Assembly (NCBI GenBank): GCA_964650185.1
Contig: CAZYRN010000004.1
Location: 2,553-62,068, forward strand
Reading direction: 5' to 3'
Length of the DNA: 59,516 nucleotides
From: an uncultured Pseudomonadales bacterium
GTDB taxonomy: Bacteria > Patescibacteriota > Microgenomatia > UBA1400 > PJMF01
Positions 8,969 to 33,878 of the stretch are shown here, piece by piece. The notes beneath the pieces were generated by a model. It worked only from the letters and a program-made list of their open reading frames with translations. It was not told the origin of the DNA and did not search any database. How positions within the stretch are numbered: the first letter of the stretch is position 1; each line of letters opens with the position of its first letter. Position numbers and translations under genes: made by a program.

Positions 8969-9016
8969 CCAAAGCTAATTTGAATCAACTATCATCAGTC
9001 TTAAGGTGAAGATATT

Positions 9017-9976
9017 ATGCCTGCCCAGCATCGATCAAAATCAAAAAAAATTCGCTCGACACGGCTGATTTCTTATTTTTTTCTCATTATCACCACCATT
9101 ACTTGGGGTGCAGCCCTCATCATTATTAAGCCAGCCCTGGACGTAACTACTCCTTTTAGATTTCTTTTCTATCGATACTTTTTGGCAGTTATTCTCTCAC
9201 TGCCGTTGTTAATTTATTTTTGGCCCAAAATTAAGCAAAAGAGGCCTGTGCTCAAAAAAATTGCTGGACTCGAGCTACTTGGCACCACTGCTGCTTTATC
9301 TCTTCTCTACTATGGTCTTGATCAAACTAGTGCTATAGAAGCTAGCTTAATTACCACTTCTTCCCCTATCTTCATCTCATTACTGGGCGTGCTGCTGCTG
9401 AAAGAAAAAGTTGAAAAACGCGAACTCTGGGGTTTTCTAATCACTCTGTTAGGTGCTGTTGTCTTGACATTAATGCCTATTTTTCATGGTACTACCCAGC
9501 TCAACGGCATCTCTTTAACCGGCAACTTACTAATCTTGGCTCAGAACCTAGCCATCGGTCTTTATTACGTCTTGGCAAAAATCCATTACCGCCAACTACC
9601 CAAACTCTTTGTCACTACTATCAGCTTTTACATTGGTCTCAGCTCATTTTTTATGCTTAGCCTGGGAGAAGCTGGCTGGTCACTCCCTGCTCTATTTAGC
9701 CAAATTACCGCCGACTTTCAAGCTCCAGTAGTTTGGCTGGCCAGCGGCTACATGGCTTTATTTGGCTCCATTATTGGTTTAACTGCTTATATTAAAGGTC
9801 AAGACGGCATTGAAGTTTCAGAAGCTGCTTTATTTACTTATCTACAGCCATTAATCTACCTCCCGCTGGGAGTATTATTCTTACAGGAACAATTAGGAGT
9901 AATTCAAATTACCGCCCTGGCAATAATTTTATTTGGAGTGGTGATCTCGGAGAAAAGAGGCCAAAAAAAGCGCTAA
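9017..9976 (+). CDS. DMT/EamA family transporter
   Basis: About 10 TM helices in two repeats; TWG...R and SPIF..LL...LLKEK motifs. Confidence 0.9.
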   Translation: MPAQHRSKSKKIRSTRLISYFFLIITTITWGAALIIIKPALDVTTPFRFLFYRYFLAVILSLPLLIYFWPKIKQKRPVLKKIAGLELLGTTAALSLLYYGLDQTSAIEASLITTSSPIFISLLGVLLLKEKVEKRELWGFLITLLGAVVLTLMPIFHGTTQLNGISLTGNLLILAQNLAIGLYYVLAKIHYRQLPKLFVTTISFYIGLSSFFMLSLGEAGWSLPALFSQITADFQAPVVWLASGYMALFGSIIGLTAYIKGQDGIEVSEAALFTYLQPLIYLPLGVLFLQEQLGVIQITALAIILFGVVISEKRGQKKR

Positions 9977-10020
9977 TTTAGTTAGCTTTCTGAGCTGGCT
10001 ATGCTATAATACCAATCTCT

Positions 10021-10350
10021 ATGAAACAAAAAATACATCCTACCTGGCATAGCGACGCCGTCGTCAAGTGTGCTTGCGGCAATGAGTTCACCACTGGCTC
10101 TACTCAAGAAGTCATTGAAGTGGATATTTGTTCTGCTTGTCATCCCTTCTTTACTGGTGAAATGAAGTTTGTTGATCGACAGGGTCGAGTTGATAAATTC
10201 CAGAAGAAAGTGGCTGCTGCTCAAGCTGCCAAACAGCAAAAAACCGCTAAGAAAAGCAAGAAGTCAGATAAACAGGCCGAGCAAAAATCTTACCGCGAAC
10301 TGCTGAGAGAGCAAAAAGATTCGCTGCGTGAGACTAGCTCAGCCGCTTAG
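10021..10350 (+). CDS. rpmE: 50S ribosomal protein L31 (Zn-binding type) with Lys/Gln-rich C-terminal extension
   Basis: [30 protein letters not shown]. Confidence 0.96.
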
Positions 10351-10365
10351 CTGTTGACGCTGCCT

Positions 10366-11340
10366 ATGTCTAATCCATTTCAAGCTCAAATCGACGAGCT
10401 AAACCGGCAAATTGCAGAGAATGAAATTCTCCTAACTGATCCTGAACTGAAAACTTTAGCGCAAGCTGAAATTGCCAAATTAGCCGAGCAAAAACAAATC
10501 TTAGACGATGCGGCAGCTCAACTTAACTCATCTTCTCAAGCTGAATTGGGTCCTGATGCCCGTCATCATCACGCTATTTTGGAGTTTCGCCAAGGTGCGG
10601 GCGGCGATGAAGCTAAGCTCTGGGCTGAAGAGCTGATGCGGATGTACATCCGTTTTGCTGAACTGCTGAAACTTAAAGTTGAATTTATTGATGAGTCTGT
10701 CATTAAAATTAAAGGCATGGCGAGCTTACCTGATCTGCCCCACCAGCTGACTGCTTACGAACTGCTTCAATATGAATCTGGCGTGCATCGGGTGCAGCGA
10801 GTGCCAGTGACAGAGTCTCAAGGAAGAATTCATACCTCCACAGCCACAGTGGCTGTATTACCTGAAGTTCATCCGGCAGCAGTACAGGTTAATGACGAAG
10901 ATTTAGAGTGGCAGTTTATCCGCTCCAGCGGTGCTGGGGGTCAGTCTGTTAATAAAACCAGCAGCGCAGTTAGATTAACTCACGTTCCATCCGGCATCAT
11001 GGTTTCTGCTCGCCAAGAACGTAAACAGACGCAAAATCGTGAGATTGCTCTAGAACTGCTCCGTTCTCAGCTCTGGGAAATTGAAGAGGAAAAAAGACTC
11101 CAAAAAATTGGTCAGGCTCGGGCGTCAATTGGCCGCGCCCGCCGTTCTGAAAAAATCCGCACCTACAACTTCCCGCAAAGCCGAGTTACCGATCATCGGA
11201 TTAAGGAATCTTGGCATAATCTTGACGAAATTTTACAGGGCAACTTGACTGATGTGGTTAGCCAAACCTACCAGCTGCTCCAGGATGCAGAAAAACAAGC
11301 TGAAAATCAGGCCGAAAAAGAAACTGAAAAAGAGAGCTAA
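10366..11340 (+). CDS. prfA: Peptide chain release factor 1
   Basis: ESGVHRVQRVPVTE (PxT anticodon), GAGGQ, SEKIRTYNFPQ. Confidence 0.95.
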   Translation: MSNPFQAQIDELNRQIAENEILLTDPELKTLAQAEIAKLAEQKQILDDAAAQLNSSSQAELGPDARHHHAILEFRQGAGGDEAKLWAEELMRMYIRFAELLKLKVEFIDESVIKIKGMASLPDLPHQLTAYELLQYESGVHRVQRVPVTESQGRIHTSTATVAVLPEVHPAAVQVNDEDLEWQFIRSSGAGGQSVNKTSSAVRLTHVPSGIMVSARQERKQTQNREIALELLRSQLWEIEEEKRLQKIGQARASIGRARRSEKIRTYNFPQSRVTDHRIKESWHNLDEILQGNLTDVVSQTYQLLQDAEKQAENQAEKETEKES

Positions 11341-11361
11341 GCCTTCCTTTGATTTTAGGCT

Positions 11362-12534
11362 TTACTGACTGCGCAGCGTTACATCAACGGAAAAATTTTC
11401 ACCTTCACGCCAGTAATCTATTCTAACTCGCTGATTTATGCTTTTACGGTTAATGATCTCGGCTAAATCAGCCTCACGTAAACTCTCACCATCAATCCGG
11501 GTAATAATATCCCCTTCTCTCAAACCAGCTTCCGCTGCAGTACTGCGCTCAACAATTCGCAGTAGATAAGCTCCCTGCGGGACTTCATTGGTTAAAGCTG
11601 CTTGAGCTGAAATATTTTGATAGGACACGCCTAAAAATGGCCGGTCAAAACTGCCGGTAGCAGTAAAGTTATCAATAGAGGCCTTCACTAAATTAATCGG
11701 CAAAGCAAAACCAATATTTTCAGCCCCAGCCGAAACAGCCACATTGACACCGATCACTTTGCCAGACCGATCCAACAGCGGTCCACCGGAATTGCCCGGA
11801 TTAATCGCGGCATCTGTTTGAATTAAATCTTCCAAATTCTCAGACTGATTACCGCTCGGATTGATCGCCTCAATGCCTCGACCCAGACCAGAAATAACTC
11901 CAGTTGTGACGGTATGTCTAAACTCTCCCAGGGCTGTCCCAATGGCAATCACCTCTTCCCCCACCCGTAGCTGATCAGAATCTCCCAGCGGCAGTGACGA
12001 CACATTTAAGCCATCTGCTCTGATGATAGCTAAATCATTCGAGGGATCACGATAAATCTGAGTCACCGGATACTCATTGCCTTCACGATCAATGACAGAA
12101 TAATCAGATTCAGCATCGCCCACCACATGTTTGTTGGTGACGACTAAATTTTCTTCACCAACTACAAAACCAGTCCCAATATCTCGCTGGACTTGTTCGG
12201 TTCTAGTACTGGGCAAACCAAATATCCCAAATGGGTCAAAACGCTCTATCACTTGCTGCTCTTGTCTGATTGACACCGTCACCACCGACTCAGCCGCAAT
12301 TTCAGTAATATCAGCCACTGAAGCTTGTTCTGCCATGATGGTACCTAGTTGAGAATTATCAGCGTTGCTCAATTGATTACGAACTGCTGGCAGCCTGATT
12401 TTGCCAGTAATTACATCCAGTGGCTGAATTACAAACAACCGGTCAGCAATTGCTCCGGCAAAAAATGAAACTAAGATCAAAACGGAAACGGATAAACCTA
12501 ATAAGAAAGTTTTATGCTGATTGTTGAATTTCAT
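11362..12534 (-). CDS. HtrA/DegP-like trypsin serine protease with PDZ domain
   Basis: N-terminal TM; GTGF, TNKHVV (His), NDLA (Asp), TDAAINPGNSGGPL (Ser); one PDZ domain. Confidence 0.95.
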   Translation of the reverse strand: MKFNNQHKTFLLGLSVSVLILVSFFAGAIADRLFVIQPLDVITGKIRLPAVRNQLSNADNSQLGTIMAEQASVADITEIAAESVVTVSIRQEQQVIERFDPFGIFGLPSTRTEQVQRDIGTGFVVGEENLVVTNKHVVGDAESDYSVIDREGNEYPVTQIYRDPSNDLAIIRADGLNVSSLPLGDSDQLRVGEEVIAIGTALGEFRHTVTTGVISGLGRGIEAINPSGNQSENLEDLIQTDAAINPGNSGGPLLDRSGKVIGVNVAVSAGAENIGFALPINLVKASIDNFTATGSFDRPFLGVSYQNISAQAALTNEVPQGAYLLRIVERSTAAEAGLREGDIITRIDGESLREADLAEIINRKSINQRVRIDYWREGENFSVDVTLRSQ

Positions 12535-12581
12535 CGTACAGATAAGCTTATCAAATAATTAGCACTCAGACAATAACTGTG

Positions 12582-13841
12582 CTAAATCTCTTCAATAGCT
12601 CGCAATAGCACCTCATCTTCTTCAGTGTCAGGGTTGTCTTCTACCTCAATGGCCACTGGAATGCCTTCATCATGAATCCAGTCGCCTTTTGGCAGCAACC
12701 AGCGAGCAATGGTCACATGCAATCCGCCGCCATTGGATAACTCACGCCGATCCTGAACTGTCCCTTTGCCAAAAGTCTGCTCGCCAATTAACTTAGCATC
12801 AAGTTGATCTCTTAGCGCTCCAGCCACAATTTCTGAAGCGGAAGCACTGCCTTTATTCACTAATACCTCAACTGGGAAATTGGTCAACCTCGCTCGACCC
12901 TGTGCTTTATAATCCTGCTGCGTGATCTTGCCTTTTTGTGAGACCACCACTCCGCCATCGATAAACTCACTGGCAACATCAATCGCCCCATCAAAGAAAC
13001 CACCCGGATTATTTCTCAGATCTAAGACAATGCCATCTAAATCTGCTCCATTAACTAAAATTTCCTTAACTGCTTGATCATACTCAGTTGGTGTCCGCTC
13101 TCCAAAGCTTGAGACCGTTAAGTGAGCTACTTTCTTACCAGCATGCTCAACAAACTTTAGCTCCACCGACTCCACCACGATCTCACCCCGCTGGACATCA
13201 ACATCAAAGGGTTCTTGATAATTGCCATCGCCATTTTTGCGGGCAATGGTAAAGGTGACAGTGGTGTTTTTCGGACCGCGGATCTTCTCCACCGCCTCAG
13301 TCAGAGACCAGTCAGTAGTATCTTCATCTAGATCCTTCATCTCATCGCGCACATGGATAATTAAATCACTGGCCTGAATACCAGCTGCTTCCGCCGGCGT
13401 CCCTTTCAATGGAGCGACAACAGCTAAAGTATTGTCGATGTAACCCAGCTCGATCCCGACGCCAAAAAATGAGCCGGCTAAATCTTCTGCTCGCCGTTGA
13501 TTTTCTTCAGGGGGCAAATAAGCCGTGTAAGGATCACCGACCGCAGCTGTCATCCCTTGAATAGCGCCGTTGACCATCGCTTTTGCATCCAGCTGCTCTT
13601 GATTTAGGTAGGTTTGATCAAGATAATTCCACACTTCCCAGAAAACTGAAAAGTCGACACTATCCTGCTTTGCTTCAGGCAGCTCAGTGTTAACAATGCT
13701 GGACAGTGGGATGTTGGCTGGTGTACCGCCTTGTATGCCGTAGCGGTAACCCACTACTCCACCCAAGGCTAATAACAGAATTCCCAGTACCAGATTTCTG
13801 ACTGCTGCCATTGATAGCTTGATTTTTGCCCTGTTTACCAT
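12582..13841 (-). CDS. S41 family carboxyl-terminal protease (CtpA)
   Basis: GDPYT, GVGIE, PDZ domain, DLRNNPGG, SASASEI, GKGTVQ. Confidence 0.95.
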   Translation of the reverse strand: MVNRAKIKLSMAAVRNLVLGILLLALGGVVGYRYGIQGGTPANIPLSSIVNTELPEAKQDSVDFSVFWEVWNYLDQTYLNQEQLDAKAMVNGAIQGMTAAVGDPYTAYLPPEENQRRAEDLAGSFFGVGIELGYIDNTLAVVAPLKGTPAEAAGIQASDLIIHVRDEMKDLDEDTTDWSLTEAVEKIRGPKNTTVTFTIARKNGDGNYQEPFDVDVQRGEIVVESVELKFVEHAGKKVAHLTVSSFGERTPTEYDQAVKEILVNGADLDGIVLDLRNNPGGFFDGAIDVASEFIDGGVVVSQKGKITQQDYKAQGRARLTNFPVEVLVNKGSASASEIVAGALRDQLDAKLIGEQTFGKGTVQDRRELSNGGGLHVTIARWLLPKGDWIHDEGIPVAIEVEDNPDTEEDEVLLRAIEEI

Positions 13842-21917: not shown

Positions 21918-22355
21918 CTATTCCGACTCATCTACTTCAATTTTGATATGTTCAATTTGACGAATGCCATGTTCTTCGATATCAGAGGTTTCCGCCGCGA
22001 CTTCATCCTCGGTGGCCTGAACTTGATCCTGTCGAGCTTGTTCTGCTGATCCGGATAAAACCTGTTTCATTTCTGCCAGCTGCTGTTCAATTTTCTGCGC
22101 ATCTTCAGCTTGCTGCCGCGCTTTAATTTCTTCTAATTCTGCCAGCTTGGCCGCTTCCTGCTCCTTCTCCTGCTCTTCGATTTGACTAAGCTCTTGATTA
22201 ACTTCAGCTGCTCCCTTCGCATCTTTTAACAGATCTTCTAAAATATCCATCGGGCTAGGAGAAGTACCAGCTGTTTGAGTTGGATCGCTAGTCTGGGTCG
22301 GATCGTCAGCCTGGGTTGGATCTGCTGCAACTACCGAATTATCTGAATCACTCAT
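21918..22355 (-). CDS. Acidic coiled-coil hypothetical protein
   Basis: 145 aa, E/Q/A-rich, with a short ADPTQ/SDPTQ repeat. Confidence 0.7.
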   Translation of the reverse strand: MSDSDNSVVAADPTQADDPTQTSDPTQTAGTSPSPMDILEDLLKDAKGAAEVNQELSQIEEQEKEQEAAKLAELEEIKARQQAEDAQKIEQQLAEMKQVLSGSAEQARQDQVQATEDEVAAETSDIEEHGIRQIEHIKIEVDESE

Positions 22356-23582: not shown

Positions 23583-23834
23583 GTGAATGTAACAATATTA
23601 AACAAAAAGCAGCCTACGAATGAACAAAATAGAAATGGATTAAATGAAATTAATGATTCTAAAGAGGAAAGTTTATTAAAAGATCCTAAGGCAACTGCAA
23701 TCGCCGCAGAAATAATTAACAAGACTAGACAGCAAGAAAAATTTTATGAGGAAATGAAGAAGGCTGGCGGGGGGAATTCTGGGATATCAGCTGAAGAAAA
23801 TATATTTGGTGTTGAAATAGCAGACTTATACTAA
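23583..23834 (+). CDS. Small AT-rich hypothetical protein
   Basis: 83-aa ORF with GTG start filling the recR-pyrF gap; no motif. Confidence 0.45.
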   Translation: MNVTILNKKQPTNEQNRNGLNEINDSKEESLLKDPKATAIAAEIINKTRQQEKFYEEMKKAGGGNSGISAEENIFGVEIADLY

Positions 23835-23910: not shown

Positions 23911-24744
23911 TCAATCATTTTTACTCCTATCTTGCATCTCTACTGCTAGTTCTTGTGCGGCCTGAGCCGGACTGTCTGCAAAAATTATTCCGCGGCTGGA
24001 ATTAATAATTAATCCCAAACCTTTTTCATTGCAGCCATCTCTCAACACGGCTGCCAAATCTCCGCCCTGCGCTCCCACCCCCGGCACTAACAGCGTCATC
24101 TCACCCACCAACTGCCTCACTTGAGACAATTCAGCCGGATAAGTAGCACCCACTACCAACAGACAGTTGCCATGTTCATTCCATTCTGAAGCAACCTGCT
24201 GAGCTACCACCTGCCACAGTGGCTGCGTCGGTAAATTATCACCCCCAGTTCTGCTCACCATTAAATCCTGTAATTCGCCAGCACCTGGATTAGAAGTGCG
24301 GCACAAAAAAATACAACCTTTGTCTTGACGTACTAAAAATGGCTGCATTGCTTCATGACCTAAATAAGGATGGAGCGTGATGGCGTCAAAACCCAGCTCG
24401 TCAAAAATCCCTTTCGCGTATGCTTCGTTAGTTGAACCAATGTCAGCTCGCTTCGCATCAGCAATGGTGGGCAGCTGAGGATGCCGTTCCTGCAAATACA
24501 TCATGGACATTTTTAGCTCCCGCCAGCCCTGCTCCCCCCTCGCTTCGTAAAAAGCCAAGTTAAATTTATAGCAACTTGTGTATTGATGAGTTTCCTCTAT
24601 TATCCACTTATTAAACTCATATTGAGGATATTCTTTGCTCAAAAAAGAAGATGGTAATTTGGAAATTTCACTATCTAAACCCACACTCAGTAAGGAATTA
24701 ATTGATTGCGCCCGAGCTTCGTATTTTTCTACAAAAGTGGTCAT
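23911..24744 (-). CDS. pyrF: Orotidine-5'-phosphate decarboxylase (type 2)
   Basis: VGLD, YKFNLAFY, DAKRADIGST, CRTSNPG, VVGATYP, LVPGVGAQGG, NSSRGI. Confidence 0.96.
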   Translation of the reverse strand: MTTFVEKYEARAQSINSLLSVGLDSEISKLPSSFLSKEYPQYEFNKWIIEETHQYTSCYKFNLAFYEARGEQGWRELKMSMMYLQERHPQLPTIADAKRADIGSTNEAYAKGIFDELGFDAITLHPYLGHEAMQPFLVRQDKGCIFLCRTSNPGAGELQDLMVSRTGGDNLPTQPLWQVVAQQVASEWNEHGNCLLVVGATYPAELSQVRQLVGEMTLLVPGVGAQGGDLAAVLRDGCNEKGLGLIINSSRGIIFADSPAQAAQELAVEMQDRSKND

Positions 24745-25373
24745 TTATTCCTTTCCGCCCAGCTCCATGGTTCTTGCAGCCAGGACTCAATTAGCTCTTT
24801 TTCTGCTGGTGAAAACAGTTTTCGCGCTAATGCCACCTCAAGAATAATAGGAAAAGTTGTTAGGGTATGCAGTTTCACATTTGCCTGCGCAAACGCCTTT
24901 TCAGCCTCAGGAAACCCGTAAGCAGTGATGACCAAACAGTCTGCCACTTCAGCTTGATCATGACGCAGTGCCTCGACTCCGGCTAGACTGCTGCCGCCTG
25001 TGGTGACGTGATCCTCGATCAGCAGCACTTTTTTTCCTTGCACTTGACCGCCTTCAATCTTGCTTTTAGTCCCATGATCTTTGACTTTTTTCCTAATAAA
25101 TACCGATGGCTGCCGCAGCTGATATCCTAAAGCTGCACTATGAGGAATACCTGCTGTCTCGATGCCAGCTAACAAATCAAATTCCAGTCTTTGTTGAGCA
25201 ATTAACTGCTGAAAACCTGCAATGACCAACTCCCATTCCTGAGGATGAGCCGGAAAAATCCGATTATCAACATAAACCGGTGATAATAACCCAGACTTAA
25301 AAGTGATTGGCTGCTGGGGTGAAAAACCTACCGCCTTAATATCGAGTAAAGCTGCTGCAATTTTTGCTTGCAT
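24741..25373 (-). CDS. pyrE: Orotate phosphoribosyltransferase
   Basis: FKSGLLSPVYVDNR, RKKVKDHG, PRPP motif VLLIEDHVTTGGS. ATG 25373 overlaps the upstream stop. Confidence 0.96.
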   Translation of the reverse strand: MQAKIAAALLDIKAVGFSPQQPITFKSGLLSPVYVDNRIFPAHPQEWELVIAGFQQLIAQQRLEFDLLAGIETAGIPHSAALGYQLRQPSVFIRKKVKDHGTKSKIEGGQVQGKKVLLIEDHVTTGGSSLAGVEALRHDQAEVADCLVITAYGFPEAEKAFAQANVKLHTLTTFPIILEVALARKLFSPAEKELIESWLQEPWSWAERNK

Positions 25374-26443
25374 TAGTTCCTTTCTTCCCAAATTTCCATG
25401 GCGAGATGCGGCTGCCACATAGCTCCAGTGGCACTTAGCACTGCGTCTGCTCCTAACTGTCGATAGTCAGCATAATCTTGGGCACTCATCACTCCGCCGA
25501 CGCCAACCACCACGAATTGCTGGTCATATTCGGCTCTCAACTGCACCAAGCGTTTTACCATCTCCAAACCTGCCCATTTAATACTCGCTCCGCAAATACC
25601 ACTTCTTTCTCGTCCTTTTCCAGGCAAAGCAGGCTTGCCAGCTTCATTCACCACCAAAGCCGGAATGGTATTAATGGCAATTAATCCATCAACAATCGGG
25701 CCGACTTTAGCTACTAGCTCTGCTAAGTGTGCCTCTTCGGCAAAATAAGCTAGTTTGAGCAGTAGCGGCGTGTTGCCAATTTCATTTTTAATCTGATCCG
25801 CAATCTGGCGCACCCGCTCCACATCAAAACATAATAGCTCAGCTGTGCCTTCATTAGGACAACTGAGATTAGCAGCTAAAATTGGCGCGCCAGTCTCTTT
25901 CACCAATCTAGCCCCCAACACATAATCATCAATAAAATCCTGAACAGAACCACCCGGCAGCTTTGTGCCTTGAAAACCGCCGATCAGCGCTTGACCCTTA
26001 CCAGCTGCCTGCACGGCTGCAGCCATATCTGGCTGCCACCAATCTGGATCCATGGAGGGGACGCCAAATGAGTTAGTAATTGAGAGCGGCTCCTCATAAT
26101 TTTCATCAGCCACCACTGGCTGCTGAGCTCTCTCTAAGCTGAGCTCACCTTCAATTTTCGCCGCTAGCACATTCGGGTTGGGGTGACAGGGATAAAATTT
26201 GGTGCGGACAGTTTTATAAACATTCAAATCAAAACCTTTGACAAAAGCAGCTGCCACAAACTTACCGTTAATTAATGGTCCAGCCGGAATACCAAATGGC
26301 TGAAATAATTTCTGACCTAAAAACTCTACTTGCGGTTCATCGAGTCGATGCAGCTGCTCACCATCAGCAAAAGCCCCAAATGGACCTGTCTCAAAATTAG
26401 CTTCGTATGAAAGCTGAGGATCGTAAAAAGGTTGTTCCATCAT
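25373..26443 (-). CDS. pyrD: Dihydroorotate dehydrogenase, divergent class-1-like
   Basis: PFGIPAG, YKTV, NSFG.PS, NLSCPN (catalytic Cys), LLKL, INT, GICG, VGVGGV; located directly upstream of pyrE-pyrF. Confidence 0.85.
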   Translation of the reverse strand: MMEQPFYDPQLSYEANFETGPFGAFADGEQLHRLDEPQVEFLGQKLFQPFGIPAGPLINGKFVAAAFVKGFDLNVYKTVRTKFYPCHPNPNVLAAKIEGELSLERAQQPVVADENYEEPLSITNSFGVPSMDPDWWQPDMAAAVQAAGKGQALIGGFQGTKLPGGSVQDFIDDYVLGARLVKETGAPILAANLSCPNEGTAELLCFDVERVRQIADQIKNEIGNTPLLLKLAYFAEEAHLAELVAKVGPIVDGLIAINTIPALVVNEAGKPALPGKGRERSGICGASIKWAGLEMVKRLVQLRAEYDQQFVVVGVGGVMSAQDYADYRQLGADAVLSATGAMWQPHLAMEIWEERN

Positions 26444-26446
26444 GAT

Positions 26447-27478
26447 TTAATTTGCTTGACTGTTTTCGGTTAAGCCCAGCACCTTTCTGCCATTACTAGT
26501 GGCAATTTTGGTTAGTGCAGCTAAATCATAAAAGTGCAGACTTTCCAGTAAAAATCTTAACTCCAGCCACATCTCCCCATCAGTAAATGGTTTATAAATA
26601 TCAGCGATGTTGTCGGTGCCAATGGCGACGGTAATTCCGGCCGCAGTCAGCTCCTCCACAGGTGTGACAGAATTATGAACCGGCTGCAGCTCTTCGCGAC
26701 GCCGGTGGTCAATCCACGCCGTTGGGCATGCAATCATCATCACTCCTGCTTCTTTGAGCTGCTGATATAGCTGCTGACGATAAGCTTGCGGATGACTGGC
26801 AATGGAGATGCCATGTATCCCCACCACTTTTCCTGCCATGCCATGCTGGCGAGTTTTGGCAGCAAGCAGTTCAGTCTCTGTTTCTTGAGGACTATTGAGC
26901 TGATCAACATGCACATGCACAAGTTTATTGAGCCGCTGAGCAGTCTCCATAATGATATCTAGGTGCTCCTCTTCCCTACCCAGATCTTTACCCGGCAAGC
27001 CGCCAATAATATCCACAAATTCAGCTCCTCGCTCAAACCACTCCCGCGCCGTCGGCTCGATAACTCCTTTTAAAGTCTGGTTAATAAAAACCAGCTCCAA
27101 ATCTGCCTGATATTTTTCTCTTACTTTGGTGGCAGCTTGGATCGCCTTATCCTCAATCACCTCATCAACATCAATAAAGCTGCCCAGCGCAGTCACTCCC
27201 TGAGCCAACTGCCGCTCGATTGCCATCGCCATCCGATCATAGATTTGAGCAACCGTTGAGGTTCGTTTCATTTCATCTACCAGCGTCCACTTTTGTTGTA
27301 ACTGTGCTTCAGCTAAGTCCAATAAATCTGGAGTAATGGAATATGCCCGATCCAGGTGGGTGTGGGCATTCACCCACCCGCCTCGAGCTTTAATTTCCTC
27401 AAGCAACAAGCCTTTTAGATCCCACTCCGCAAGGCCTGTTAACTTCGCTTCAGTAGCTTTTTTAGCTGCGTTTGCCAT
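26447..27478 (-). CDS. Cytosine-deaminase/AtzC-like metal-dependent amidohydrolase (atypical active site)
   Basis: NAHTHLD (H39/H41), HVHVDQ (H190), IHG (H222), GTDN (D289). Compact, lacking most of the N-terminal beta domain. Confidence 0.85.
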   Translation of the reverse strand: MANAAKKATEAKLTGLAEWDLKGLLLEEIKARGGWVNAHTHLDRAYSITPDLLDLAEAQLQQKWTLVDEMKRTSTVAQIYDRMAMAIERQLAQGVTALGSFIDVDEVIEDKAIQAATKVREKYQADLELVFINQTLKGVIEPTAREWFERGAEFVDIIGGLPGKDLGREEEHLDIIMETAQRLNKLVHVHVDQLNSPQETETELLAAKTRQHGMAGKVVGIHGISIASHPQAYRQQLYQQLKEAGVMMIACPTAWIDHRRREELQPVHNSVTPVEELTAAGITVAIGTDNIADIYKPFTDGEMWLELRFLLESLHFYDLAALTKIATSNGRKVLGLTENSQAN

Positions 27479-29090
27479 TTCTGACGACCAATCTTTTCGC
27501 TAGTTTATGAACATAGTTCTCCGCGATCTCATAGTTATCAATGTACTTAGTGTCATTTTTGACTGACCACTCCCGAATGACTTTTTGATCAGCTTTGGCT
27601 TCGCCAGTTTGTTCACGGTAGGGCTCATGGAAAATGACATCAAATCGGTCTTGTCTCAGCAGATCTTCTAAAGAAGGATTTTTCTTTTTGTACATCTTAT
27701 GAATTAAGATGGATGGCACTTTGTTTTTCTTGAAGAAGCGGTATGTGCCATTGGTAGCATAAAGTTCATATCCTAACTCAATCATCTTTTTAGCTAAAGG
27801 CAAATACTTCTGCTTATTGTCATCTTCACCAATAGTAAACAAGGCAAAGTACTGTTTTTCTTGAGCTGTTTTCATTTGCAGCGTGTAGATTTCCGTAAAG
27901 CCAGCTGAGCAGTTCTGGTTAAAACCCTCACTCTTCATAAAGGTCGCTAACCGCTCTTTGTAAAGTGAGTTGGGACTCTCGACAGCTACTACTTCAGCAC
28001 AGCCTTTATACAGCCGGAGAGTGGCTTTACCAGTCACTTTCTGATTAACTCTGTCTAAGTAAGCATTGAGATTTTGCAGTAGCGGCTCATACCACAGACC
28101 GCCATAGCATAAATAAGCCCACTTATTATCAATTTCAGCCTTGAACTCATTTTCATAACGAGTTGAGACGTATTTTTCTAAGTTAAAGTGTGCTTGAATA
28201 ATAATTTCTGCTGCAGGCGCTTCATATAAACCGCGCACCTTCAACCCGACTAAGCGATCCTCAATGTGATGAGTCACCCCCACGCCGTGTTTGGCGCCAA
28301 TCTTATTCAGCTTCATAATTAGCTCATGCAGCTGCATGTTTTTACCATTTAAAGCCACTGGCAAGCCTTTGACAAAATCAAGCGTCACCAGCTCTGATTT
28401 ATCAGGTGCTTTTTCCGGCAAGGCACACACCTGTAAAATTTTCTCTAAGGGCGGAATCATTTCCGGATTTTCAATTTCACCGCTCTCACCTGTCACGCCC
28501 CACATATTGTCATCATAAGAATAAGGCGAGTCTTTAGTTTGTTTGACAGGAATGTTGTGTTTCTTCACATACTCCAACTGCTCATCCCGACCCATACTCC
28601 ACTCTCTAACTGGCGCAATGATCTTCATTTCCGGTGCTAAAGTCAGTACAGTGCCTTCAATCCGCACTTGGTCATTCCCCTTGCCGGTACAGCCATGAGC
28701 GATGGTATCAGCCTCATACTTGCGGGCCGTATCAACCGCTAATTTTGCCAACAGCGGCCGGCCGATAGGCGTACTAAGGTGGTATTTTCCCTGATAGCTA
28801 GAATTCGCTTTAATGCCCCAGGCAATATAATGGTAAGCGAACTCTTTTTTAGCATCAATTAAAACCGCTTTATAAGCACCTAAATCCAGTGCTTTTTGCT
28901 TAATTTTTTCTAAATCATCCGCTTGCTGACCAATATCAATTGTTAACGCAATTACCTCTGCTTCATACTCATCCGCAATCCATTTCAGCATCATCGAGGT
29001 ATCAAGGCCACCAGAGTAAAGTAGAACCACTCTTTTGACTTCTCCCTTGCGTCCTTCGTAACTCGACACCTTGATGTACTGTTGCATCAT
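27462..29090 (-). CDS. argG: Argininosuccinate synthase fused to a C-terminal MGS-like (CarB allosteric-type) domain
   Basis: YSGGLDTS, AHGCTGKGNDQVR, DDNMWG and DRLVGLKVRGLYEAP in aa 1-410. aa ~413-532 (FTI...K......KKM.ELGYELYATNGT.....HK....P...D......D.I) match the CarB/MGS pattern. SD GAAAGGAG. Confidence 0.93.
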   Translation of the reverse strand: MMQQYIKVSSYEGRKGEVKRVVLLYSGGLDTSMMLKWIADEYEAEVIALTIDIGQQADDLEKIKQKALDLGAYKAVLIDAKKEFAYHYIAWGIKANSSYQGKYHLSTPIGRPLLAKLAVDTARKYEADTIAHGCTGKGNDQVRIEGTVLTLAPEMKIIAPVREWSMGRDEQLEYVKKHNIPVKQTKDSPYSYDDNMWGVTGESGEIENPEMIPPLEKILQVCALPEKAPDKSELVTLDFVKGLPVALNGKNMQLHELIMKLNKIGAKHGVGVTHHIEDRLVGLKVRGLYEAPAAEIIIQAHFNLEKYVSTRYENEFKAEIDNKWAYLCYGGLWYEPLLQNLNAYLDRVNQKVTGKATLRLYKGCAEVVAVESPNSLYKERLATFMKSEGFNQNCSAGFTEIYTLQMKTAQEKQYFALFTIGEDDNKQKYLPLAKKMIELGYELYATNGTYRFFKKNKVPSILIHKMYKKKNPSLEDLLRQDRFDVIFHEPYREQTGEAKADQKVIREWSVKNDTKYIDNYEIAENYVHKLAKRLVVRNGKRS

Positions 29091-29245
29091 GCTCCTTTCA
29101 GTTTAGTTAATATTGAGTGGTGTTTATGCAAAAGATGCCAATGAAAAAGATGCAAAAAAAATCCCGCCTGGGCGGGAGTGAAACCAAACACCGAATGGGG
29201 TGTTTTCAGTTGTTGCTGGAAAGTAGTTTTCTTAGTGGTAGGCAC
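29087..29245 (-). CDS. Putative 52-aa leader peptide reading through the terminator
   Basis: GTG 29245 is open to TGA 29087-29089, which overlaps the argG ATG (ATGA): VPTTKKTTFQQQLKTPHSVFGFTPAQAGFFLHLFHWHLLHKHHSILTKLKGA. Confidence 0.35.
   Translation of the reverse strand: MPTTKKTTFQQQLKTPHSVFGFTPAQAGFFLHLFHWHLLHKHHSILTKLKGA
29154..29177 (-). terminator. Intrinsic terminator (attenuator) inside the argG-pyr operon leader
   Basis: TCCCGC-CCAG-GCGGGA followed by T8, lying between the promoter and the argG start. Confidence 0.85.
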
Positions 29246-29255
29246 TAAGAATGAC

Positions 29256-29285
29256 AGTATAGTCCTAGCGATAATCCAATTGCAA
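29256..29285 (-). promoter_or_regulatory. Sigma70-type promoter of the argG-pyr operon
   Basis: TTGCAA (29280-29285), 18-nt spacer, TATACT (29256-29261). Confidence 0.7.
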
Positions 29286-29293
29286 CGGGTAAT

Positions 29294-29932
29294 TTAGTGG
29301 GATGACATTTTTTCTTTGACCGCCGCCCAAATAGCTTCCTCAACCTCATCTACATCTTGATCGGCATCAATCACTACCCACCGATTCATCTCGTCAGCAG
29401 CGGCCAGCTCTAAGTAAGCCGCCCGAACTTGGTCATGGAATTTTTTATTTTCCATGTCCAAGCGATTCACATCACCGGCGTCGTTACGGCGATTTAAACC
29501 CTTCGCCACATCCACATCCAGCAGTAAAGTTAAATCAGGATAAGTATTTTTTGTAGAAATATTATTCAACTCTTCAATCATCTCTTTACCAAAACCCCTC
29601 ACCAAACCTTGGTAAACCACACTGCTGTCGCGGGAGCGATCCATCACGACTACTTTGCCAGATTCCAAAGATGGAATAACTAGCTCGCGATAAATCTGGG
29701 CTCGAGCTGCTTGAAATAATAAAACTTCAGTTGTAAAAGCCATGCCAACATTTTTACTAGACAACACCACTTCCCGAATCTGCTCAGAAATCACCGTGCC
29801 ACCCGGCTCGCGCAAAATTAACACATCTTTGCCGACTTTAGTCAGCCGCTCTCTAATGCGAACTGCCTGAGTAGTTTTACCACCGCCCTCGCCGCCTTCT
29901 AAAGTAATTAAAAAACCAGGTTTATTTGACAT
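29294..29932 (-). CDS. tmk: Thymidylate kinase
   Basis: LEGGEGGGKTTQ, REPGGT, LFQAARAQ, MDR...S...YQG, PDLTLLLD. Confidence 0.96.
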   Translation of the reverse strand: MSNKPGFLITLEGGEGGGKTTQAVRIRERLTKVGKDVLILREPGGTVISEQIREVVLSSKNVGMAFTTEVLLFQAARAQIYRELVIPSLESGKVVVMDRSRDSSVVYQGLVRGFGKEMIEELNNISTKNTYPDLTLLLDVDVAKGLNRRNDAGDVNRLDMENKKFHDQVRAAYLELAAADEMNRWVVIDADQDVDEVEEAIWAAVKEKMSSH

Positions 29933-29959
29933 GGAGATATCTTATCAAAAAATAGCATA

Positions 29960-30769
29960 TTATTCTAAGCTGTACTGCTGAGCCATGGCGGGAAGTGGAT
30001 GGTCCCTTCTAAATTGTTCCTGTAACATCTCAAAATTCATGGGATTTCTAAAGTCACCAATTAAATCTTTGTAGGGCCACCAATCTACTCGCTCAAGTCC
30101 AAGTGGGCGCTCCTCACCTAAGATTTGTAGGTTGTTTCTGATGAATCGTAGACACAGATGTGAGTGATCTTTTTGCTTTTGTCGATCATCCTGAGTAAGT
30201 CTTTCACCAGTAAAATAATCTTTGCCATTAAAAAATATAGCTGGATAGTTTCTTCGGTCCTTTTCTTCTACATCAGCAATCACTTGATTAACTGGAGTGT
30301 TAATAGGAACAGCTAAGTATGCTGAAAGTAATAATGTTAAAAATTCTTCCAATTCTTTAATTAAATTCTTTTCATCTAAATTACCTGCTATTTCAAATAG
30401 TCGATCGAGAATATCCGATCTTCTACCCTGACCATTCACACTTCTTCTCACTTGGTCATAATCAATTTCTTCAGTTGGCGAAGGCGTACCCATGGCCACC
30501 CAGCCTCCGTCCGTAAGTTCAATTAGTAAGTTTTCTACTATTAATTGCTCAAGCTCTTGTCGAATCTCTTCCAACTCTCCCAGCAATAAATTGATAGATC
30601 CATCAAGGCTACCTGGAATGATTGATTTCCTTTCGCTTAACCAGATTATGACTGTGTTCCGGAAATTTTCTAAATCCGTAGTTTCAATTAAGAAATCCCG
30701 TCGTTCTCCATAGCCTTGATGAAGTAAAAGATGAGGAAATTTTTCAGAACTTTTGGTCAAAGTAGCCAT
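29960..30769 (-). CDS. Hypothetical protein, possibly MazG-like all-alpha NTP pyrophosphohydrolase
   Basis: LLGELEEI...IELTD (ExxE...ExxD) and VEEKDRRNYP segments. AT-rich; GGAG upstream of ATG 30769. Confidence 0.5.
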   Translation of the reverse strand: MATLTKSSEKFPHLLLHQGYGERRDFLIETTDLENFRNTVIIWLSERKSIIPGSLDGSINLLLGELEEIRQELEQLIVENLLIELTDGGWVAMGTPSPTEEIDYDQVRRSVNGQGRRSDILDRLFEIAGNLDEKNLIKELEEFLTLLLSAYLAVPINTPVNQVIADVEEKDRRNYPAIFFNGKDYFTGERLTQDDRQKQKDHSHLCLRFIRNNLQILGEERPLGLERVDWWPYKDLIGDFRNPMNFEMLQEQFRRDHPLPAMAQQYSLE

Positions 30770-30900
30770 AACAACCACACTCCTATATTAGATAACTAAC
30801 AGAATACCCGTAGCTAATAAATTAGAAAACCACAACAGCTTGTGGTTTAAAAACTATCTAACCACAAAATTATGCACTTTATTCACGCACTTTTCCAGAA

Positions 30901-31437
30901 TTATTCCCGCAAAGCCTGGTATTCCAGCATGATAGTTTGTGATGACAATTGTTTTAGATTGATCAACTTGAGATCAGCGGTAACATCATTATTAAAAAGA
31001 CTGATGCCTTGGCCAAAAACGACTGGCTCAATAGTTAAGTACAGCTTGTCTACCAGGCCTGCCTGCAGAAATAAGGTGTAAATAGTTGCTCCGCCAGAAA
31101 TAGCCACTTGAGTAAATCCAGCTACTGCCAAAATATCAATGACTTCTGTAGGTGATTGCTTAGTAAAATAAGCCTCTCCTGGTTGTAGCTTGATACCTCT
31201 TTTTAGCTCAAGCTGATTCTTACCAATCTCTCTACTGAACACTATATTTACTCTGCCTGACAAAGGTCGCGGCAGGGTGTGAAAAGTATTACTGCCCATC
31301 ACCACCACTCCAGCGGCTTTGCTTTTTTCTGCAAACCAAGCTGCATCTTCCTTGCTTGTCCAACGAGTCGATAAATCGGCGTCATGACGCCCGATCCAGC
31401 CATCAGCGGTTAAAGCTGCAATGATAAAAACTTCCAT
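30901..31437 (-). CDS. Dihydrofolate reductase family protein
   Basis: IIAALTADG.IG, W..KED..WF, VVMGSNTF, RPLSGRVNIV, ISGGATIY, KLYLT. Confidence 0.88.
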   Translation of the reverse strand: MEVFIIAALTADGWIGRHDADLSTRWTSKEDAAWFAEKSKAAGVVVMGSNTFHTLPRPLSGRVNIVFSREIGKNQLELKRGIKLQPGEAYFTKQSPTEVIDILAVAGFTQVAISGGATIYTLFLQAGLVDKLYLTIEPVVFGQGISLFNNDVTADLKLINLKQLSSQTIMLEYQALRE

Positions 31438-31498
31438 CTTTTCCTAATTACCTTTCTTTTTCTTACTTTTCTGGCTTTACTTACATTTAGAATTGTTC

Positions 31499-31533
31499 AT
31501 TGCCTAAAAACCAGATGATTGCCTAAAAACCAG
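31499..31533. repeat. 16-bp direct repeat duplicating the dut stop region
   Basis: ATTGCCTAAAAACCAG at 31499-31514 and 31518-31533. Confidence 0.85.
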
Positions 31534-31951
31534 TTGAACCGATTCCACCTCGACTATCATGACCCAACTTTTTCACCTCTTCAATCTCCACTGCTTCTCT
31601 GGGCAGCACTAACAACTGCACTAAGCGCTCCCCTTTTTTGATGACTGCCGGCTGTTGAGAAAAATTAAATAAAATAGCATGGTACTCATCATCATCACCG
31701 CAAAAATCTTCATCACCCACCCCAATGCCATTAGCCATCAACAAACCTTTTTTGTGCAGTGAGCTACGCGCTGCCATTAACGCCCAGTGATGGGGCGGCA
31801 GCTCTATAGCAATATTTAACGGCACATAACCAATTTCCTGAGGCTGAATAGTAAAATTAATTCGGGCATATAAATCCAGAGCTGCCGCCCGCTCAGTTTT
31901 ATACTCGGGCAATGGCAGACTAGTATCAAAACGCTTCATCTTTAATTTCAT
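31523..31951 (-). CDS. dut: dUTP diphosphatase
   Basis: AAALDL, ARSSL, GVGDEDF, GERLVQL, RGGIGSTG. Confidence 0.93.
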   Translation of the reverse strand: MKLKMKRFDTSLPLPEYKTERAAALDLYARINFTIQPQEIGYVPLNIAIELPPHHWALMAARSSLHKKGLLMANGIGVGDEDFCGDDDEYHAILFNFSQQPAVIKKGERLVQLLVLPREAVEIEEVKKLGHDSRGGIGSTGF

Positions 31952-31993
31952 CTATTCAAGTATAACATTGCTCATTATTGACGGAGCTGGTGC

Positions 31994-32866
31994 TTAGACA
32001 GTTGCTAAACTCAAATAGAAGAAAAGTTGAGCTTTTTCCTCAGGTGTAAGCTCAGCTGAAAAATGATTATCTAATAATTCTTGAAAAGCGCTCACGTTTT
32101 CCTGCCAATACTCTGCGTAATTAACACCGCCAAACATATCTGCTCTGCACAAGAGGAAAATTTTCGCAATTAAATCCAACTTAACTGCTCTAATAAAAGC
32201 TAAAAACTGCTCTTCTGTCTGGACTTGCTCTTTAAAATCTTGAAAAAAGTGATGATACAGAATGACTAACTCCATTGCTTCCCAAAAAGATTCATCAGCT
32301 ATTTTGCCTCTATTTTCGACTTGGTCAATGAGCTGACGAATAATTATTGCTCCTAGTTCAGCATGACTGGGATGAGAGTGTTTTTCCTCTGGAGGAATTA
32401 GTTGATTAATCTCTTTTTGAGTCATGCCCCCGCTAATAGCTTTGCCTGCATCATGATAGATGGCTGTTAGTCTAAGAAAAAATCTTAGCTCCGCCTCAAT
32501 GCCATCAGTTTTCAGCTCTCTCAGCACCTTAATGGTATGTTCGTAGGGAGTCTGACCACTGTGACCTGTTGTCACCCTAATAGCTTTGGAGTTAAGTTTA
32601 GTAAATAATTCTGACTTCGCTAAAATCTCTTCTAAATTTGGCAGTACTTGCTCAATAAACAACTCATCACTTAACTGTCTCGTAGCTGACAAAATTTGTA
32701 TTAACTGCTGAAAAATTTGCACATCTTCTTCCTCACCTGCCCACTCTAACCTGCCATTTTCATTTAAAGTAAAAATTGAGTTAGGATGATCAATCAGACG
32801 CCTTTGTTCTTCAGTGATCTCTGGAGTTCGATAATGTTCAACAGTCCTGCCGTTTAACTTACTCAT
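31994..32866 (-). CDS. HD-domain protein
   Basis: YEHT..V, AIYHDAGK, HAELGA, YHH and AD motifs of the HD superfamily. Confidence 0.75.
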   Translation of the reverse strand: MSKLNGRTVEHYRTPEITEEQRRLIDHPNSIFTLNENGRLEWAGEEEDVQIFQQLIQILSATRQLSDELFIEQVLPNLEEILAKSELFTKLNSKAIRVTTGHSGQTPYEHTIKVLRELKTDGIEAELRFFLRLTAIYHDAGKAISGGMTQKEINQLIPPEEKHSHPSHAELGAIIIRQLIDQVENRGKIADESFWEAMELVILYHHFFQDFKEQVQTEEQFLAFIRAVKLDLIAKIFLLCRADMFGGVNYAEYWQENVSAFQELLDNHFSAELTPEEKAQLFFYLSLATV

Positions 32867-32939
32867 GACCGCAAACTATATCAAACCTTAGTTAAACTGT
32901 CACTTGCCACTCAACCTTACTTCTTGCTACAGTAACCTC

Positions 32940-33878
32940 ATGCTGACCGTCCCCTCTCAACCTAAGACTAAAAAAACTCCCGATACCCAATACCGAGAAA
33001 TTTTACAGCTCATTATGGATCATGGCACCCGAGTGATGGCCCAAGCTGGTGGTGAGAAAAAATCTGACACCGACACCATTAGTTATATCGCTCCTCCACC
33101 TATGCGTTTTGATCTGGAAAACGGTTTTCCTCTCCTAACTGAGCGCAACCTGGCACCGGATTTTAAAAAAGTTCCGACTGTCTGGAAACAGGCCATTGGC
33201 GAGATTATCGGTTTTATTAACGGTGCCCGAACACAGTCTGAGTTAGAAAAATACGGCTGCCACTGGTGGAAATACTGGGTAACTGCTGAAAAATGCCAAA
33301 AACGCGGTTTAGAACCAGGTGATCTAGGGCCAGGCTCATATGGAGCCGCTTTTCATGACTTCCCTACCGCTGAAGGCGATAGTTACAATCAAGTCAAAAA
33401 TATTGTCGAGCAGATCATCGAGTTGCCACATCTTAAAACGCACTTCATCTCTCCTTGGATTCCGCAGTACACCATTCGCGGCACCGGTAAAAAGCAGCAG
33501 GTTGTAGTCTGTCCATGTCATGGCTGGATGCACTTTTTTGTCCGTGACGGCAAATTAAGTTTGCACATGTTCCAGCGATCCGGTGATGTGCCAATTGGCA
33601 TTCCGCAAAATATGGCTCAATATGCGGCTTTAGTGATGATGATGGCTCAAGCTACTGGAAATAAACCTGGCGAGCTGATTCACACCATCTCTGACGCTCA
33701 TATCTATGTTAATCAGCTGCCGGCTGTGGAAGAAATTCTCAAAAGAGAACCGCGGCCATTTCCCACCATGAAGCTCAACACCGACAATACTGATATTTTC
33801 AAATTTAGAGTTGAGGACTTTGAACTGAGTGACTATCATCCTCATCCTGGCATAAAAGGCATTCCGGCCGCAATTTAA
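32940..33878 (+). CDS. thyA: Thymidylate synthase
   Basis: GFPLLTER, CPCH (catalytic Cys), QRSGD, PQN (Asn = dUMP specificity), DAHIY. Promoter TTGCCA-18-TACAGT lies 6 nt before ATG 32940. Confidence 0.95.
   Translation: MLTVPSQPKTKKTPDTQYREILQLIMDHGTRVMAQAGGEKKSDTDTISYIAPPPMRFDLENGFPLLTERNLAPDFKKVPTVWKQAIGEIIGFINGARTQSELEKYGCHWWKYWVTAEKCQKRGLEPGDLGPGSYGAAFHDFPTAEGDSYNQVKNIVEQIIELPHLKTHFISPWIPQYTIRGTGKKQQVVVCPCHGWMHFFVRDGKLSLHMFQRSGDVPIGIPQNMAQYAALVMMMAQATGNKPGELIHTISDAHIYVNQLPAVEEILKREPRPFPTMKLNTDNTDIFKFRVEDFELSDYHPHPGIKGIPAAI

Follow-up and report, generated by a model that had tools for sequence, protein, structure and literature searches.

The argG-MGS–amidohydrolase–pyr operon and its proteins

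A 59.5-kb stretch of contig CAZYRN010000004.1 from an uncultured small-genome bacterium (hereafter the window, meaning the whole stretch analyzed) carries five open reading frames (ORFs) head to tail on the minus strand (23911–29090), encoding in order an argininosuccinate synthase joined to an MGS-like domain (ArgG-MGS), an amidohydrolase (AH), PyrD, PyrE, and PyrF. ArgG-MGS (27462–29090, 542 aa; NF001770 argG and Pfam MGS) comprises an argininosuccinate synthase domain (27852–29090, residues 1 to ~413) and an MGS-like C-terminal domain homologous to the allosteric domain of CarB (27462–27851, residues ~414–542). Behind it lie AH, of the PRK06886 type (26447–27478, 343 aa; NF005365), a divergent PyrD-like dihydroorotate dehydrogenase (25373–26443, 356 aa), the orotate phosphoribosyltransferase PyrE (24741–25373; TIGR00336, 125 bits vs. 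a cut-off of 106.8), and PyrF, an orotidine monophosphate decarboxylase of subfamily 2 (23911–24744; TIGR02127, 228 bits vs. a cut-off of 110.6), all on the minus strand. The argG-MGS and AH genes overlap by 17 nt, a 3-nt gap separates AH from pyrD, pyrD and pyrE overlap by 1 nt (TAATG, with the PyrE ATG at 25373), and pyrE and pyrF overlap by 4 nt (ATGA). A preliminary description of this DNA had reported a tightly coupled five-gene operon, and its coordinates and all four junctions match ours. It had also placed carA, carB, pyrB, pyrC, and argH outside both the operon and the window, with which we agree: phmmer searches of all ORFs of the window, queried with E. coli proteins and with their Patescibacteria counterparts from related loci, found no CarA, CarB, PyrB, PyrC, ArgH, or OTC, nor any arginase or enzyme of the ADI, DDAH, or CtlX type.

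The synthase domain of ArgG-MGS has strong and full-length family membership. Residues 17–413 correspond to a complete argininosuccinate synthase, scoring 500 bits against NCBIfam argG NF001770 (cut-off 334), and the protein reaches 446 bits against TIGR00032 (cut-off 268), while T. thermophilus ArgG (chain 1j1z) matches the domain with E = 1e-98 (334 bits). The ATP P-loop (SGGLDTS) is kept, and Y87, R95, T119, N123, D124, R127, S180, E191, E270, and Y282 (human numbering) are retained in at least 98 of 103 ArgG-MGS members; among these, Y87, T119, N123, D124, R127, S180, E270, and Y282 are what we take to be the citrulline- and aspartate-binding residues listed in UniProt. Six family-wide substitutions nevertheless fall in motifs that are invariant in ordinary ArgG, namely S92P (101/103), H187G (102/103), N271D (103/103), L88H, G90S, and Y190G/A. 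From these sequence features we read ArgG-MGS as a specialized subfamily, with some room for altered substrate or product handling.

At the C terminus, Pfam MGS (PF02142) matches residues 430–514 with 46 bits (cut-off 24), and the same region matches positions 898–1048 of the CarB profile NF003671, the allosteric domain, with CarB as the best-matching homologue. A family hidden Markov model aligns to residues 940–1041 of E. coli CarB and places conserved K, T, T, and K at CarB K954, T974, T977, and K993, which presumably form the IMP/UMP phosphate site known from the CarB-IMP structure literature; the position of CarB N1015 is His in the window protein. The domain was thus correctly named as being of the CarB allosteric type.

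AH belongs to a family that has been given no function. Its sole strong family match, over its full length, is NCBIfam NF005365 (PRK06886; 477 bits vs. a cut-off of 340), which carries the name "hypothetical protein" in NCBIfam release 20.0. Cytosine-deaminase models score it at ~100 bits, far under their cut-offs of 403–483, and no Pfam or NCBIfam dihydroorotase model matches it. A confident AlphaFold model (pLDDT 89) shows a TIM barrel whose best structural matches are 5-methylcytosine deaminases, cytosine deaminases, and AtzC (TM 0.76–0.82). Both this comparison and sequence alignment make CodA and AtzC its closest solved structures, as had been proposed. AH shares the fold and metal site of E. 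coli CodA and pADP-1 AtzC (N-isopropylammelide isopropylaminohydrolase), but is only 22–28% identical to them, is shorter (343 aa vs. ~403–427), and has no beta-sandwich domain.

The active site sets AH apart from the deaminases. Residues H39/H41/H190/H222/D289 align with the metal-site residues H61/H63/H214/H246/D313 of CodA, whereas Q193 replaces the catalytic E217 (D220 in AtzC) and is invariant in close members and kept in at least 90% of distant ones. CodA Q156 (AtzC Q160) corresponds to L136, and the adjacent K137 is invariant only among close members. AH also has the D-N motif that follows the beta-8 Asp in AtzC, and a basic residue, R44, at the position of AtzC K65. Because the metal site is kept while E217 and Q156 are replaced by Gln and Leu, AH is not a cytosine deaminase, and its build is that of enzymes which take an exocyclic amine off a pyrimidine-like ring. 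We also considered K137 as the carboxylated, metal-bridging Lys of a dihydroorotase-type binuclear site. This is unlikely: K137 falls one residue past the CodA substrate Gln position and three past the predicted beta-4 strand, and distant members do not conserve it.

The window PyrD exceeds the Pfam DHO_dh cut-off (67 bits vs. 27) but falls under every NCBIfam dihydroorotate dehydrogenase cut-off. DHO_dh genes of like size (354–360 aa) stand after canonical PyrC in three Microgenomates loci (L170, L174, and L177), and the L174 protein gives the same weak DHO_dh profile matches, likewise under all NCBIfam cut-offs. The divergent proteins of the window (25373–26443), L174 (16716–17789), and L170 (17309–18391) share an extra N-terminal stretch of ~120 residues, and Roizmanbacteria loci L003 and L021 have a 633-aa PyrD version fused to a further domain. 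In L111, for example, the divergent type gives way to an ordinary class-1 PyrD (318 bits to PRK07259), with ArgG-MGS and AH still ahead of it. The presence of an ordinary enzyme behind the pair argues that the product handed on is ordinary dihydroorotate.

Conservation and gene partners of the pair

AH homologues at 55–73% identity are found mostly in Patescibacteria (Pacebacteria, Woesebacteria, and Roizmanbacteria), and metagenomes from bioreactors, digesters, sludge, landfill, and groundwater contain the same DNA. When one genome per GTDB species was scanned, AH relatives were recovered in at least 558 species. The best 80 of these 558 include the cultured Bacteroidota Saprospira, Empedobacter, Weeksella, Moheibacter, Vaginella, and Faecalibacter, as well as Melainabacteria and an aphid (Geopemphigus) symbiont of the Bacteroidota. 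Clustering at 50% leaves a compact family of 82 representatives (E <= 1e-30), and a plasmid search with AH returned only distant rhizobial amidohydrolases (<28% identity). Fifteen of the loci (L007, L010, L011, L013–L016, L020, L027, L034, L035, L038, L044, L055, and L073) come from Patescibacteria-like metagenome-assembled genomes whose record titles read "uncultured Pseudomonadales" or "Gammaproteobacteria"; these labels look unreliable. One 471-aa homologue (P0002) contains an internal tandem duplication of ~140 barrel residues that is probably an assembly or gene-call artifact.

We took a census of 80 AH-anchored loci (the best 80 of 558, from distinct species) and 80 ArgG-MGS-anchored metagenome loci, which are not phylogenetically independent and include many short contigs. 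Their ORFs were scored against the proteins of the window, those of E. coli, and Patescibacteria forms of the canonical enzymes. Of the ArgG-MGS-anchored loci, 57/80 have AH no more than 300 nt from ArgG-MGS (55 on the same strand, often overlapping) and 65/80 have it somewhere in the locus; from the other side, ArgG-MGS is within 300 nt of AH in 23/80 AH-anchored species. The commonest orders, with > marking the direction of reading, are ArgG-MGS>AH>PyrD>PyrE>PyrF (23 loci), ArgG-MGS>AH (22, many of them short contigs), and ArgG-MGS>AH>PyrD (13), and ArgG-MGS>AH>PyrD(>E>F) patterns amount to ~50 loci. Since the census proteins are only ~60–70% identical to their window counterparts, this gene order has survived deep divergence, and the clustering of ArgG-MGS, AH, and pyr genes is far beyond chance. 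PyrD follows the pair in 40/80 ArgG-MGS loci and ArgH is near in 4/80, the opposite of what is expected of an arginine-biosynthetic ArgG. Conservation of the cluster had been set as a test in the preliminary description, and the order ArgG-MGS>AH(>PyrD) does recur in dozens of loci; the coupling of the pair to pyrD, pyrE, and pyrF that it claimed is likewise upheld, the pair being conserved, often translationally coupled, and usually ahead of these genes.

In other lineages AH associates with ArgH. AH adjoins ArgH rather than ArgG in 9/80 AH-anchored species, seven times on the same strand (gaps of −3 to 167 nt) and twice convergently, in Saprospiraceae, Chitinophagales, the Geopemphigus aphid symbiont, and two Patescibacteria. 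The lyases concerned pass the NCBIfam argH equivalog cut-off. ArgH is immediately upstream of AH in L047 (8550–10954, overlapping) and L082 (8558–11104), and also in L028, L037, L043, L064, and L070, a set of loci that covers Saprospira, other Saprospiraceae, Chitinophagales, and the aphid symbiont; the reduced genome of the Geopemphigus symbiont retains the ArgH-AH pair beside a glutamate/aspartate symporter gene. Because argininosuccinate is the sole metabolite common to the ArgG and ArgH reactions, these partners point to it as the AH substrate, and the pairing with ArgH supports the earlier proposal that argininosuccinate is the linking metabolite.

Enzymes acting on guanidino compounds form a second class of partners, with DDAH-like or ADI-like enzymes adjoining AH or ArgG-MGS in 29 loci. 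Most of nine metagenome loci have a DDAH/arginine-dihydrolase-like gene separating ArgG-MGS from AH, and the DDAH-like proteins retain the catalytic Cys and His. In L179, on a 792-kb Patescibacteria contig, DDAH-like>AH>PyrD occurs with an 8-nt overlap of the first two genes and no ArgG nearby. The full run there (7829–12133) is AIRS-domain (PurM-like)>DDAH-like>AH>DHO_dh. ArgG-MGS does not occur within 10 kb of it, and the ATP-using AIRS-domain protein might be a stand-in for ArgG. Nineteen Flavobacteriales/Weeksellaceae loci (L033, L036, L039, L051, L057, L060, L062, L063, L065–L067, L071, L072, L076, L077, L079–L081, and L083; ~10000–13000 in each) have AH, a 304-aa ADI-like gene, and CtlX in that order on one strand, and arg and pyr genes are absent within 10 kb. 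CtlX is a putative citrullinase (PMC9007349).

Fusions tie AH to its proposed partners on both sides. P0295 is a 657-aa AH-PyrD fusion, with PyrE-like and PyrF genes next to it in L183, and it suggests that the AH product is most likely dihydroorotate, the substrate of PyrD. Five proteins of ~480 aa (P0254, P0260, P0267, P0268, and P0281) carry MGS at the N terminus of AH; the fusion in L184 adjoins a DHO_dh gene, and the contig of P0260 is too short for informative gene context. From these fusions it follows that MGS belongs to the ArgG/AH module as a unit and not to ArgG alone.

Relatives with canonical pyr operons show which genes the pair stands in for. We found such loci with a Patescibacteria PyrB query, taking the best 120 of more than 8,000 matches. 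L170 reads arginase-like>PyrB>CarA>CarB>PyrC>EamA>PyrD>PyrF>PyrE, and L177 reads CtlX, DDAH-like>PyrB>CarA>CarB>PyrC>PyrD>EamA>PyrF>PyrE. In L174, ArgH>ArgG-MGS>DDAH-like>EamA and an oppositely oriented AH lie beside a full canonical operon that is divergent from AH (PyrB>CarA>CarB>PyrC>Crp-like>PyrD>PyrE-like>PyrF>PyrE). Arginine- or citrulline-degrading genes thus lie just upstream of pyrB in L170 (arginase family, 9017–9910) and L177 (CtlX and DDAH-like, 8100–9922), which suggests that arginine commonly feeds pyrimidine synthesis in Microgenomates; an EamA transporter gene lies inside the operons of both. No PyrB, PyrC, or CarAB was found in the fetched flanks of any ArgG-MGS>AH>PyrD locus. 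Since relatives keep PyrB, CarA, CarB, and PyrC before a similar PyrD, ArgG-MGS and AH hold the position of those four genes. Apart from L174, no contig was common to the 120 PyrB matches and the AH or ArgG-MGS matches, which is weak evidence.

L174 also bears on what AH does. Its PyrC keeps all metal ligands of E. coli dihydroorotase (H17, H19, K103, H140, H178, and D251) as well as the substrate residues R21, N45, and H255, whereas AH, set against dihydroorotases (PyrC classes I–III), has neither a model match nor a likely bridging Lys. With every catalytic residue present in PyrC, AH is not needed in L174 as a plain dihydroorotase, and its gene stands there among those of the arginine type.

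A candidate route from argininosuccinate to dihydroorotate

Judged from sequence, the proposition that ArgG-MGS and AH supply dihydroorotate to PyrD, PyrE, and PyrF without aspartate carbamoyltransferase or canonical dihydroorotase (argininosuccinate -> dihydroorotate + ornithine) is in our view the best explanation available, held at about even confidence. ArgG, given its strong family membership, would use ATP to condense citrulline and aspartate to argininosuccinate, and AH would turn the amidino-aspartate part of this product into dihydroorotate and free ornithine, a conversion that would be water-neutral overall. Argininosuccinate is known to cyclize to a six-membered anhydride, in effect a dihydroorotate that bears an N-alkyl-imino group at C2. 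The likeliest path would be ring closure to this anhydride followed by hydrolytic displacement of the N-alkylamine at C2, the proposed chemistry being that of AtzC, in which an alkylamine is displaced from a ring carbon flanked by two nitrogens. As variants, hydrolysis might yield carbamoyl-aspartate, which AH itself or a PyrC from another locus would then cyclize, or guanidinosuccinate might be the substrate where the only partner is DDAH-like or amidinotransferase-like. PyrD, PyrE, and PyrF would then make UMP as they ordinarily do.

By homology to CarB, the MGS domain probably lets a nucleotide regulate the module, for which the preliminary description had proposed feedback by UMP. AH is a plausible committed or branch-point step because it would draw argininosuccinate from arginine metabolism, and an allosteric-type domain is expected at such a point. 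In other lineages argininosuccinate would apparently come from ArgH running in reverse (arginine + fumarate), and DDAH-like enzymes may supply citrulline from arginine. A broader proposal, which we hold with a little less than even confidence, is that many Patescibacteria, and probably some Bacteroidota and Melainabacteria, bypass aspartate carbamoyltransferase and dihydroorotase via amidino-aspartate, the PRK06886 AH, and nucleotide feedback through MGS. The amidino-aspartate, mostly argininosuccinate, would be made by ArgG-MGS, by ArgH in reverse, and possibly by an amidinotransferase-like enzyme, and carbamoyl phosphate would also be bypassed when citrulline or arginine is scavenged.

Operon position, the ArgH pairing, the fusions, and the kinship of AH with CodA and AtzC speak for the pathway interpretation offered in the preliminary description, while L174 and the loci joined to CarAB speak against it. 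Its claim that the pair replaces carAB, pyrB, and pyrC stands as regards operon position, as seen in L170, L174, and L177, but does not hold as a general rule. That description had also counted intact canonical genes and argH in related genomes against its own pathway, and L174 is in part such a case, where the module is an addition and not a replacement.

Several observations weigh against the proposed route. L174 has a complete canonical operon alongside the ArgG-MGS/AH module, ArgG-MGS>AH is joined to CarA-CarB in L144, L152, and L159, ArgG-MGS occurs with canonical PyrC and PyrB and no nearby AH in L145 and L148, and PyrB is common in Microgenomates. AH genes are found without nearby ArgG or ArgH in L179, L183, L184, Weeksellaceae, and Melainabacteria. 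The observed absences cover the 59.5-kb window, and pyrB, pyrC, carAB, argH, or OTC may lie elsewhere in the genome. With canonically invariant positions substituted, the substrate or product of ArgG-MGS is perhaps not exactly canonical. The reaction proposed for AH comprises two chemical steps in one active site, for which we know of no direct precedent, and the route would be costlier in ATP than the canonical pathway unless the cell scavenges citrulline or arginine.

The main rival explanation, which we consider unlikely, is that AH is a non-homologous dihydroorotase cyclizing carbamoyl-aspartate made by a PyrB encoded elsewhere, with ArgG-MGS an ordinary arginine enzyme that clusters with pyr genes since both pathways use carbamoyl phosphate and aspartate. 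AH does occupy PyrC's place ahead of PyrD and is fused to PyrD in P0295, and the fetched flanks of ArgG-MGS>AH>PyrD loci contain no canonical PyrC. The PyrB>CarA>CarB clusters of L168 and L169 have no nearby PyrC, and such genomes might use AH; Q193 in the position of the deaminase Glu would suit a 4-oxo (uracil-like) ring such as dihydroorotate; and ArgG-MGS stands beside ArgH or OTC in L136, L153, L154, and L166. However, in L174 AH coexists with a catalytically complete PyrC, AH matches no dihydroorotase model, and an allosteric-type MGS domain on a reversible mid-pathway enzyme would be unusual. A dihydroorotase role also leaves unexplained why AH is coupled to ArgH in Bacteroidota and to DDAH-like, ADI-like, and CtlX genes in two phyla, and why AH is coupled to ArgG-MGS far more commonly than ArgH is (ArgH 4/80; PyrD 40/80).

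Distinctly less probable is a division of labor in which the DDAH-like or ADI-like enzyme carries out the guanidino-to-ureido step on argininosuccinate or guanidinosuccinate to give carbamoyl-aspartate, leaving AH nothing but the ring closure; where the operon has no such gene, one would be encoded elsewhere. The overlapping DDAH-like>AH>PyrD genes of L179 with no ArgG nearby, the nine loci with ArgG-MGS>DDAH-like by AH, the 19 Flavobacteriales loci with AH>ADI-like>CtlX, and the retained catalytic Cys and His would all fit. Most ArgG-MGS>AH>PyrD operons, that of the window included, nonetheless have no gene of this kind, and DDAH/ADI chemistry on argininosuccinate would give aspartate and citrulline instead of carbamoyl-aspartate, which counts against this explanation.

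We give slightly less weight still to the idea that AH serves arginine metabolism in metabolite repair or some accessory role, for example by reopening spontaneous argininosuccinate anhydrides or by freeing arginine or citrulline and aspartate from a conjugate, and that its proximity to pyrDEF reflects a mixed arg/pyr supercluster. AH does adjoin ArgG, ArgH, DDAH-like, ADI-like, and CtlX genes in three phyla, and L174 has arg-type and pyr genes side by side. Yet ArgH is rare near ArgG-MGS>AH whereas PyrD follows in about half of the loci, AH is found fused to PyrD, and the window pair sits in a pyrimidine-nucleotide island with no other arginine gene. Least probable of all, and in our estimate very improbable, is an ArgG-MGS of changed chemistry that activates carbamate or urea by adenylation and joins it to aspartate, making carbamoyl-aspartate or guanidinosuccinate directly for AH to cyclize or deaminate: the family-wide substitutions S92P, H187G, N271D, L88H, and Y190G/A would be in keeping with it, and MGS would then regulate the true first committed step, but ArgG-MGS is well above the argG equivalog cut-off, keeps the residues we take to bind citrulline and aspartate, and, like AH, has ArgH neighbors that point to argininosuccinate itself.

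Genomic setting and relation to known pathways

Upstream of the operon, a sigma-70-like promoter match (TTGCAA, 18 nt, TATACT; 29256–29285, minus strand; 9/12 positions) lies just past the tmk stop codon, and a GC-rich hairpin (TCCCGCC-CAGG-CGGGA; 29177–29162) followed by T8 (29154–29177 in all, minus strand) lies ~65 nt upstream of the argG-MGS start. Promoter- and terminator-type sites are no more numerous in this region than in shuffled sequence, so the promoter match is weak evidence, and the hairpin between tmk and argG could equally be a tmk terminator or an attenuator. A promoter and leader terminator had been claimed here; the promoter-like site and the hairpin with its T8 do exist, but the leader-terminator role is ambiguous and not above the shuffles. 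Rfam at gathering thresholds gives only two tRNAs in the window and no RNA leader or riboswitch upstream of argG-MGS, and there is only a weak resemblance to a PyrR site, judged by eye. In a look for RNA evidence of co-transcription, the window sequence turned up in DNA metagenome runs only.

The operon is embedded in a pyrimidine-nucleotide neighborhood (tmk, folA, dut, and thyA; 29294–33878, directly on its upstream side), and no further arginine gene occurs in the window. By Pfam, this comprises tmk (29294–29932, minus strand), DHFR (folA; 30901–31437, minus strand), dUTPase (dut; 31523–31951, minus strand), an HD-domain protein (31994–32866, minus strand), and thyA (32904–33878, plus strand), with an uncharacterized 272-aa ORF (29960–30778) between tmk and DHFR. 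About 10 kb of the window is given over to UMP and dTMP synthesis. On the other side of the operon, an 83-aa ORF (23583–23834) lies on the opposite strand in the recR-pyrF gap, and an acidic ORF of 145 aa, rich in Gln and Glu and carrying PTQ(A/T/S)D repeats, lies at 21918–22355.

Compared with known systems, the window operon shares with the canonical Microgenomates pyr operon (L170, L174, and L177) the last three enzymes, the unusual PyrD type, the UMP product, and one-operon packing, and differs in having ArgG-MGS and AH in place of the four genes whose products make carbamoyl phosphate and carbamoyl-aspartate and close the ring. The ArgG domain resembles the ArgG of the arginine pathway (and urea cycle), where it acts with ArgH, in passing the equivalog cut-off and keeping catalytic and substrate residues; it differs in its C-terminal MGS, its six family substitutions, and its partners, which are AH and pyrD and not ArgH. 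MGS in turn has ArgG as its carrier in place of CarB, or in some lineages the N terminus of AH. Thermococcales are reported to use arginine-derived carbamoyl phosphate for pyrimidines through an arginine synthetase pathway (PMC13260591), which is a precedent for arginine or citrulline, and not carbamoyl phosphate synthetase, as the carbamoyl source of pyrimidines. That route still passes through carbamoyl phosphate, and pyrimidine biosynthesis is described there as conserved in these archaea, whereas our candidate route would dispense with carbamoyl phosphate, PyrB, and PyrC. Full-text literature searching found no published description of an argininosuccinate-to-pyrimidine route, of a dihydroorotase role, or of the PRK06886 family; GapMind papers concern other enzymes.

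To our knowledge, carbamoyl phosphate synthetase, aspartate carbamoyltransferase, and dihydroorotase are treated as the universal first three steps of pyrimidine synthesis, and metabolic reconstructions rely on that. Were the main rival correct, AH would be a fourth, non-homologous kind of dihydroorotase, which would be a new enzyme assignment too. Should argininosuccinate instead be the precursor, as we propose, a second route to dihydroorotate would call for a new reading of "incomplete" pyrimidine pathways in Patescibacteria and other reduced genomes. The conserved PRK06886 family (at least 558 species genomes) would gain a function and the amidohydrolase superfamily a new reaction, and host-dependent bacteria would prove to have a direct metabolic link that leads from arginine or citrulline into nucleotides.

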